From: Escherichia coli
GTDB taxonomy: Bacteria; Pseudomonadota; Gammaproteobacteria; Enterobacterales; Enterobacteriaceae
Reading direction: 5' to 3' (one strand)
Assembly: GCF_003334355.1 (NCBI RefSeq)
Contig: NZ_QOWP01000001.1
DNA: 64,000 bases
The notes under the pieces were generated by a model that did no database searches, was not told the origin of the DNA, and was given only the letters and a program-made list of their open reading frames with translations. The position numbers and the translations under genes are program-made. This document shows, in pieces, positions 57,149-57,996 of the stretch (position 1 is its first letter; each line of letters begins with the position of its first letter).

Positions 57149-57189
57149 CACTTTTCGGTTTACTGTGGTAGAGTAACCGTGAAGACAAA

Positions 57190-57373
57190 ATTTCTCTGAG
57201 ATGTTCGCAAGCGGGCCAGTCCCCTGAGCCGATATTTCATACCACAAGAATGTGGCGCTCCGCGGTTGGTGAGCATGCTCGGTCCGTCCGAGAAGCCTTA
57301 AAACTGCGACGACACATTCACCTTGAACCAAGGGTTCAAGGGTTACAGCCTGCGGCGGCATCTCGGAGATTCC
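57190..57373 (+). ncRNA. ssrS: 6S RNA (SsrS), regulator of sigma70 RNA polymerase
   Basis: Sequence begins ATTTCTCTGAGATGTTCGCAAGCGGGCCAGTCCCCTGAGCCGATATTTCATACCACAAGAATGTGGCGCTCCGCGG and ends ...CATCTCGGAGATTCCC, as I recall for E. coli 6S RNA; lies between zapA and fau. The 3' end is approximate. Confidence 0.88.
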
Positions 57374-57447
57374 CTTCTTATCTGGCACCAGCCATGACGC
57401 AACTACCAGAACTCCCACTGACATTATCCCGACAAGAAATCCGCAAA

Positions 57448-57996
57448 ATGATTCGGCAACGTCGTCGTGCGTTAACGCCGGAACAACAGCAGGAAATGGG
57501 TCAACAAGCCGCTACCCGGATGATGACTTATCCCCCGGTGGTGATGGCACATACGGTCGCTGTATTCCTCTCTTTTGATGGCGAACTCGACACCCAGCCA
57601 CTCATAGAACAACTCTGGCGCGCCGGTAAGCGCGTATATCTTCCAGTTTTGCATCCCTTTAGTGCCGGTAATTTGCTGTTCCTGAATTACCATCCGCAAA
57701 GCGAACTGGTGATGAACAGGTTGAAGATCCATGAGCCAAAATTGGATGTGCGTGACGTGCTACCCCTTTCCCGATTAGACGTGCTGATCACACCGCTGGT
57801 CGCCTTTGATGAGTACGGTCAGCGCCTGGGAATGGGCGGTGGTTTTTATGATCGGACCTTACAAAACTGGCAGCACTATAAAACGCAACCGGTGGGTTAT
57901 GCGCATGATTGTCAGTTGGTGGAAAAACTCCCCGTTGAAGAGTGGGATATCCCTCTTCCTGCGGTGGTTACACCGTCGAAAGTCTGGGAGTGGTAA
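57448..57996 (+). CDS. fau: 5-formyltetrahydrofolate cyclo-ligase family protein
   Basis: ORF 57250..57996; the first 66 codons overlap ssrS. Start at the internal ATG (MIRQRRRALTPEQQ, 182 aa), after the 6S RNA end. Confidence 0.88.
   Translation: MIRQRRRALTPEQQQEMGQQAATRMMTYPPVVMAHTVAVFLSFDGELDTQPLIEQLWRAGKRVYLPVLHPFSAGNLLFLNYHPQSELVMNRLKIHEPKLDVRDVLPLSRLDVLITPLVAFDEYGQRLGMGGGFYDRTLQNWQHYKTQPVGYAHDCQLVEKLPVEEWDIPLPAVVTPSKVWEW

Follow-up and report, generated by a model that had tools for sequence, protein, structure and literature searches.

The window analysed here, a stretch of 64,000 nucleotides from Escherichia coli (contig NZ_QOWP01000001.1), carries the cell division gene zapA, the 6S RNA gene ssrS and the cyclo-ligase gene fau (ygfA) one after the other. 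In the RefSeq annotation, pepP and ygfB lie on the minus strand, zapA, ssrS and fau follow on the plus strand, and an Ibs toxin gene and serA come next on the minus strand. The features of the locus are the following:

56819..57148, plus strand: zapA, cell division protein ZapA, 109 residues (open reading frame, NF008209, RefSeq annotation)
56930..56958, plus strand: candidate distal ssrS promoter P2, inside zapA (TTGCAA-17 nt-TAGAGT, hexamers read from the sequence)
57145..57174, plus strand: candidate proximal ssrS promoter P1 (ATGACA-18 nt-TG-n-TAGAGT, 9/12 matches in a promoter scan)
57190..57373, plus strand: ssrS, 6S RNA, 184 nt according to Rfam and PGAP (RF00013 match, fold, covariation, RefSeq annotation)
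57214..57233, plus strand: product-RNA (pRNA) template region, 6S nucleotides 25-44 (sequence reading)
57250..57393, plus strand: spurious N-terminal extension of a 248-residue open reading frame, covering 6S nucleotides 61-184 and the spacer (six-frame list of open reading frames)
57374..57393, plus strand: 20-nt spacer that separates 6S from the fau start, CUUCUUAUCUGGCACCAGCC (sequence reading)
57394..57996, plus strand: fau (ygfA), 5-formyltetrahydrofolate cyclo-ligase, 200 residues, best-supported coding sequence (PGAP WP_000192748.1, profiles, conservation)
57448..57450, plus strand: codon of Met19 of fau, probably internal, and start of the 182-residue K-12 reference model (NC_000913.3 b2912, 549 nt)

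The 6S RNA gene and its surroundings

ZapA matched the NCBIfam equivalog NF008209 over its whole length (221.8 bits for a cut-off of 96, profile positions 1-109 of 109). The TGA of zapA ends at 57148 and the 6S gene begins at 57190, leaving a gap of 41 nt (57149..57189) just as the initial annotation had measured it; across 62 species this gap is 41-43 nt. The zapA-6S-fau order was kept in all enterobacterial loci fetched, and 6S lies directly 5' of fau in 4 Pasteurellaceae loci. The segment 56700..58200 matches E. coli ATCC 8739 at 100% identity, and 5426/5426 complete E. coli genomes searched contain it at 95% identity or more.

A 6S RNA of 184 nt had been proposed at 57190..57373, and the Rfam scan that was to check it returned a full-length match to RF00013 (6S/SsrS; 139.8 bits, the gathering score being 46.4; E = 2.2e-28; model positions 1-187 of 187), with no difference from the gamma-proteobacterial type. 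The secondary structure on which that proposal depended is present. The minimum free energy of the single sequence is -80.5 kcal/mol, compared to a mean of -56.7 for shuffled sequences (z = -5.62), and 0 of 200 shuffles were as stable. Closing stem, central bubble and terminal stem are all found, and 15 of the 47 pairs of the consensus structure show compensatory changes between Enterobacteriaceae and Pasteurellaceae, in an alignment of 9 sequences limited to these two bacterial families (the window copy, 4 other enterobacterial and 4 Pasteurellaceae copies). The product of the gene folds as an elongated, imperfectly paired rod that opens into a bubble at its centre. 6S RNA mimics an open promoter for the sigma70 holoenzyme and is freed once the polymerase has used it as template for a short product RNA. 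The U at 6S position 44 falls on 57233, which we take to be the point where pRNA synthesis starts, and the reverse complement of nucleotides 25-44, AUCGGCUCAGGGGACUGGCC, presumably gives the pRNA sequence. All sequence-level defining features of the 6S family are present, the pRNA template being judged from the sequence alone. U44 has been listed within the region around the pRNA start site (PMC3299989). For the K-12 6S RNA, which has the same sequence, both binding to the sigma70 holoenzyme of RNA polymerase and a build-up in stationary phase are established (PMC2848244, PMC3299989). The K-12 reference gives ssrS 183 nt (end at 57372) and Rfam and PGAP give it 184 nt (end at 57373); the literature is likewise divided between 183 and 184 nt (PMC12152304, PMC10406553).

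The locus is the same as that of K-12 MG1655 (zapA b2910, ssrS b2911, fau/ygfA b2912): the 6S copy is 100% identical over the 184 nt of ssrS, the Fau core is 100% identical, and the K-12 order is likewise ygfB / zapA-ssrS-fau-sibC/ibsC / serA. The annotation alone differs, with 183 nt for 6S and 182 residues for Fau in K-12 compared to 184 nt and 200 residues in PGAP. The two published promoters, 5' processing by RNase E/G and Rho termination in ygfA apply to it directly. The zapA-ssrS-fau synteny has been described before (PMC7641849, PMC2848244); the locus is textbook material without new biology, and its confirmation as such therefore adds nothing new. The ZapAB-SsrS-(FAU1)-EVE array of beta- and gamma-proteobacteria (PMC7641849) shares zapA-ssrS-fau with the window, as well as ygfB-pepP head to head upstream, but here fau is followed by sibC/ibsC and serA and by no EVE-domain gene, as is also the case in E. 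coli K-12 (PMC7641849).

Transcription, processing and termination

Two ssrS promoters are described in PMC10406553, a proximal one that depends on sigma70 and yields a 194-nt precursor of the 183-nt RNA, and a distal one that responds to sigma70 and sigmaS and yields a 404-nt precursor. The candidate hexamers of the window, which place transcription starts at -9 and about -225 from the 6S 5' end, are consensus matches that fit these two precursors. Candidate P1 has an extended -10 TG and a -35 hexamer that overlaps the zapA stop codon; it predicts a start near 57181, and its TAGAGT -10 is kept in 61/62 species. The distal promoter was placed inside zapA because of the length of the 404-nt precursor, and we tentatively assign to it the hexamers at 56930..56958, which predict a start near 56965. 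In 60/62 species TTGCAA and TAGAGT occupy the equivalent positions of zapA, a count that is confounded by the coding constraint on this gene. The primary work on the ssrS promoters and on Rho termination is reportedly that of Kim & Lee 2004, Chae 2011 and Lee 2013.

The initial annotation had suggested co-transcription of the locus with processing of the RNA. For ssrS and fau this was already established (PMC2848244, PMC10406553, PMC12152304 and PMC3299989): 6S is co-transcribed with ygfA/fau, in an arrangement conserved in gamma-proteobacteria (PMC2848244), and PMC12152304 reports maturation by RNase E/G together with exonucleases as well as regulation of the ssrS promoters by H-NS, Lrp and Fis. 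In PMC3299989, Chae 2011 is cited for Rho-dependent termination inside ygfA. We found no intrinsic terminator from zapA to the fau stop, bar one weak consensus match inside fau, and no terminator-like hairpin was seen within 57149-57822. Since no intrinsic terminator separates zapA from ssrS, it is plausible that transcripts from zapA's own promoter also enter ssrS; polycistronic expression including zapA has been proposed (PMC7641849).

Put together, these elements outline a model in which ssrS transcription would begin both at the proximal promoter, with its -35 over the zapA stop, and at the distal promoter in zapA, RNase E/G would remove the 6S 5' leader, and the lack of an intrinsic terminator 3' of 6S would leave it to Rho to stop some transcripts in early fau, these being then trimmed back to the 6S 3' end. 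Other transcripts would read through to give the fau mRNA. We regard the model as a whole, from the two ssrS promoters, RNase E/G and the alternative of Rho stop or read-through to translation of fau from 57394, as very likely.

Choice of the fau start codon

The initial annotation had named the ATG at 57448 as the genuine fau start. An ATG is indeed in place at 57448..57450, and it is the start of the K-12 model: NC_000913.3 gives b2912 549 nt, and the resulting 182-residue protein is still the one found in the curated record NP_417387.3 and in the UniRef entry 5FCL_ECOLI. If fau were translated from this codon only, the 74 nt that follow 6S would be an untranslated spacer. A second in-frame ATG, on which that annotation was silent, lies at 57394..57396, 20 nt past the 6S 3' end, and it is there that RefSeq/PGAP starts fau (603 nt, 200 residues, WP_000192748.1). 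A third model, of 248 residues, starts still farther upstream, and all three are public: 182 residues in 571 contigs, 200 residues in at least 1000 contigs and 248 residues in at least 1000 contigs. The text of a retapamulin Ribo-seq preprint and the supplements of TRAINSPOTTER N-terminomics and INRI-seq yielded no experimental evidence on where fau translation begins.

Protein profiles accept both shorter forms. The 182-residue form scores above the two NCBIfam cut-offs, with 426 bits for NF007661 (profile 17-198) and 172.3 bits for TIGR02727, yet it enters the latter profile only at position 8 and so lacks its first 7 positions. The 200-residue form covers NF007661 from 2 to 198 of 198 (447.1 bits, cut-off 343) and TIGR02727 from 1 to 182 of 182, starting at residue 13 (180.6 bits, cut-off 84.9). 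Similarly, the PF01812 model (E = 1.7e-47, positions 1-186) begins at residue 61 of the 248-residue frame, that is at nucleotide 57430, and the 200-residue product spans both PF01812 and TIGR02727 end to end. Homology to the solved cyclo-ligases 2jcb, 1ydm, 1sou and 3hxt starts at residue 12-14 of the 200-residue form. Only this form shows all the sequence features that define the cyclo-ligase family.

We then compared fau starts at 68 loci, one genome per species, 67 of which carry 6S upstream. An in-frame ATG past the 6S 3' end was found in 67/67 species with 6S. At the K-12 start position an ATG is present in 14/67; the other 53 have no start codon there or nearby, the position being occupied by CTG, TTA, CTA, GTT, ATC, CAG, CAC and others, and neither GTG nor TTG occurs at it in any of the 67 species. 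Over the 7 codons before 57448 the entropy at the first, second and third codon positions was 0.49/0.12/1.11, compared to 0.54/0.46/1.47 over the next 30 codons, a third-position variation which indicates that these 7 codons evolve as coding sequence. Across the loci Arg13 is invariant and written with 5 synonymous codons, including a CGN-to-AGA switch, while Arg17 uses 2 codons and Thr2 uses 4.

The same residues stand out in the wider family, for which we used 131 near-full-length representatives of clusters at 50% identity. Arg17, whose codon lies upstream of 57448, is invariant in 129/129 representatives, the position of Arg13 is R or K in 105/128, and 130/131 representatives start no later than Arg13; the commonest residues at position 19 are Q, T, H and A. 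A start at 57394 thus retains an N-terminal R/K-x-x-(L/I)-R motif, whereas a start at 57448 loses both Arg13 and Arg17. In the enterobacterial proteins the motif is preceded by 10-12 poorly conserved residues (MTQLPELPLTLS in E. coli), and the chains of the bacterial structures 1ydm and 1sou start some two residues ahead of it. The number of codons that separate the ATG from the motif varies (7, 10, 12 or 15). The N-terminal Lys/Arg residues of methenyl-THF synthetase presumably contact the ATP phosphates; a literature search on the role of these residues returned nothing relevant. The E. coli cyclo-ligase protein has been called putative or predicted (PMC2848244, PMC7641849), and the fau product is a putative ATP-dependent enzyme converting 5-formyl-THF to 5,10-methenyl-THF. 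The tryptic peptide TQLPELPLTLSR is unique to the 200-residue form after removal of the initial methionine.

The comparative tests all favour 57394, in five independent lines (homology, conservation of the start codon, substitution pattern, conservation across the family, and the length changes on either side of the ATG), and we hold with high confidence that this ATG is the fau start. fau would then be translated from a C/U-rich leader devoid of Shine-Dalgarno motif into a 200-residue 5-formyltetrahydrofolate cyclo-ligase, with the ATG at 57448 most probably encoding an internal methionine. The absence of a Shine-Dalgarno motif before 57394 would normally count against this start, but on reading the sequence we found none before 57448 either. 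A GGAG in the 3' strand of 6S was considered as a Shine-Dalgarno motif for 57394 and rejected, as it lies 25 nt upstream and is paired in the closing stem. Exclusive initiation at 57448, although it has the K-12 record and the UniRef entry on its side, would have to dispense with an invariant arginine and with a start codon in most species, and we consider it very improbable. The 57448 codon could also serve as a secondary start in Escherichia, so that 200- and 182-residue isoforms would be made side by side. All Escherichia loci carry the two ATGs in frame, as do Salmonella and some Citrobacter and Pseudocitrobacter, and as neither has a Shine-Dalgarno motif, neither is obviously favoured. 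However, Met19 is not conserved, which means that no conserved function can depend on it, and judging from conservation a form without Arg17 would hardly function as an enzyme. Such dual initiation appears unlikely to us. The K-12 reference model of 182 residues, the most cited of the three, is probably short and incomplete.

The 248-residue frame (57250..57996) had been called an annotation trap that begins inside the 6S gene, and both statements hold: its start is 6S nucleotide 61, and outside Escherichia the frame is closed by stops. In its favour, no stop interrupts the frame in the window or in any Escherichia locus, and the exact product has been deposited by several sources in NCBI, IMG and ENA (e.g. 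AJE57453.1, CBJ02606.1). However, its ATG (-123) and a frame open from -201 are found only in Escherichia. In 53/59 non-Escherichia loci with 6S the fau frame opens only 46, 63 or 71 nt upstream of the 3' end of 6S; in the remaining 6/59 it opens farther downstream, in four cases beyond 6S altogether. Relative to fau, the register of 6S moreover shifts between genera because the spacer length varies by non-multiples of three, so that the frame read across 6S changes among species. The last 60 nt of 6S are near-invariant (mean entropy 0.036 per site), 6S conservation follows base-pairing, and residues 1-60 of the 248-residue frame gave no significant Pfam match. We give practically no credence to a real protein overlapping the RNA gene, and the 248-residue frame would be a chance opening across it. 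On the opposite strand, a 108-residue open reading frame spanning the whole 6S gene (57098..57424, minus strand) had no support either and was taken as a chance frame.

The fau leader and neighbouring elements

Moving the start to 57394 leaves 20 nt instead of 74 untranslated between 6S and fau. The 20-nt spacer at 57374..57393 is C/U-rich, G-poor and without Shine-Dalgarno motif. The corresponding spacer measures 12-25 nt in 64/67 species and 99-125 nt in three, its lengths not being confined to multiples of three. In 26 representative spacers from Enterobacteriaceae and Pasteurellaceae (among the homologous spacers L004-L071), C accounts for 39%, U for 34% and G for 8%, and no Shine-Dalgarno-like motif was found in any of them. 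The C/U-rich leader suggests Shine-Dalgarno-independent initiation, a Rho loading site, or both: initiation at fau would be independent of a Shine-Dalgarno motif, and the composition of the spacer would be as expected for a Rho loading region. The three long spacers (L033:1399-1500, L037:1376-1500, L050:55-153) belong to Klebsiella spallanzanii, Enterobacter sp. 10-1 and an uncultured Klebsiella, where an insertion separates 6S from fau.

A gap of 20 nt would change the view of how formation of the 6S 3' end, termination by Rho and translation of fau fit together. With so tight a spacing between the 6S 3' end and a fau ATG lacking a Shine-Dalgarno motif, translation of fau could be coupled mechanistically to the formation of the 6S 3' end. 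Ribosomes would then load on fau right against the 6S closing stem, in competition with Rho loading and 3' trimming, so that any one transcript would end up as a 6S precursor or as a fau mRNA, but not as both. Translation of fau could in addition be gated in cis, by the 6S domain or by RNA polymerase bound to this domain. We advance only tentatively, as possible though rather doubtful, the combined proposal of a K-12 Fau model truncated by 18 residues and deprived of an invariant arginine, a true start adjacent to 6S and without Shine-Dalgarno motif, and the consequences of both for ribosome loading and gating. The practical yield is an annotation correction which PGAP already has and which the K-12 reference and UniRef do not. 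Clones, deletions and enzyme preparations built on the 182-residue model would be expected to miss the conserved N-terminal motif.

In Kluyvera (loci L040, L045 and L070) the fau match extends over 627 nt (1501-2127) compared to 594-603 nt elsewhere, which points to some 11 extra codons inserted in frame within the gene. Directly 3' of fau, the SibC antitoxin RNA was recognized at 58022..58172 on the plus strand (Rfam RF00113, 135 bits); it overlaps the annotated gene of a 19-residue type I toxin of the Ibs family, at about 58097..58156 on the minus strand. Some E. coli genomes have two Ibs genes downstream of fau, with a longer match to the query. Elsewhere in the window, the nucleoid-associated noncoding RNA naRNA4 (RF02564) was found at 43602..43679 on the plus strand, with 67.7 bits for a cut-off of 59.5, and a tRNA gene at 195..265 on the minus strand (RF00005, 71.6 bits), whose anticodon loop, CUUCCCAAG, suggests tRNA-Gly(CCC).
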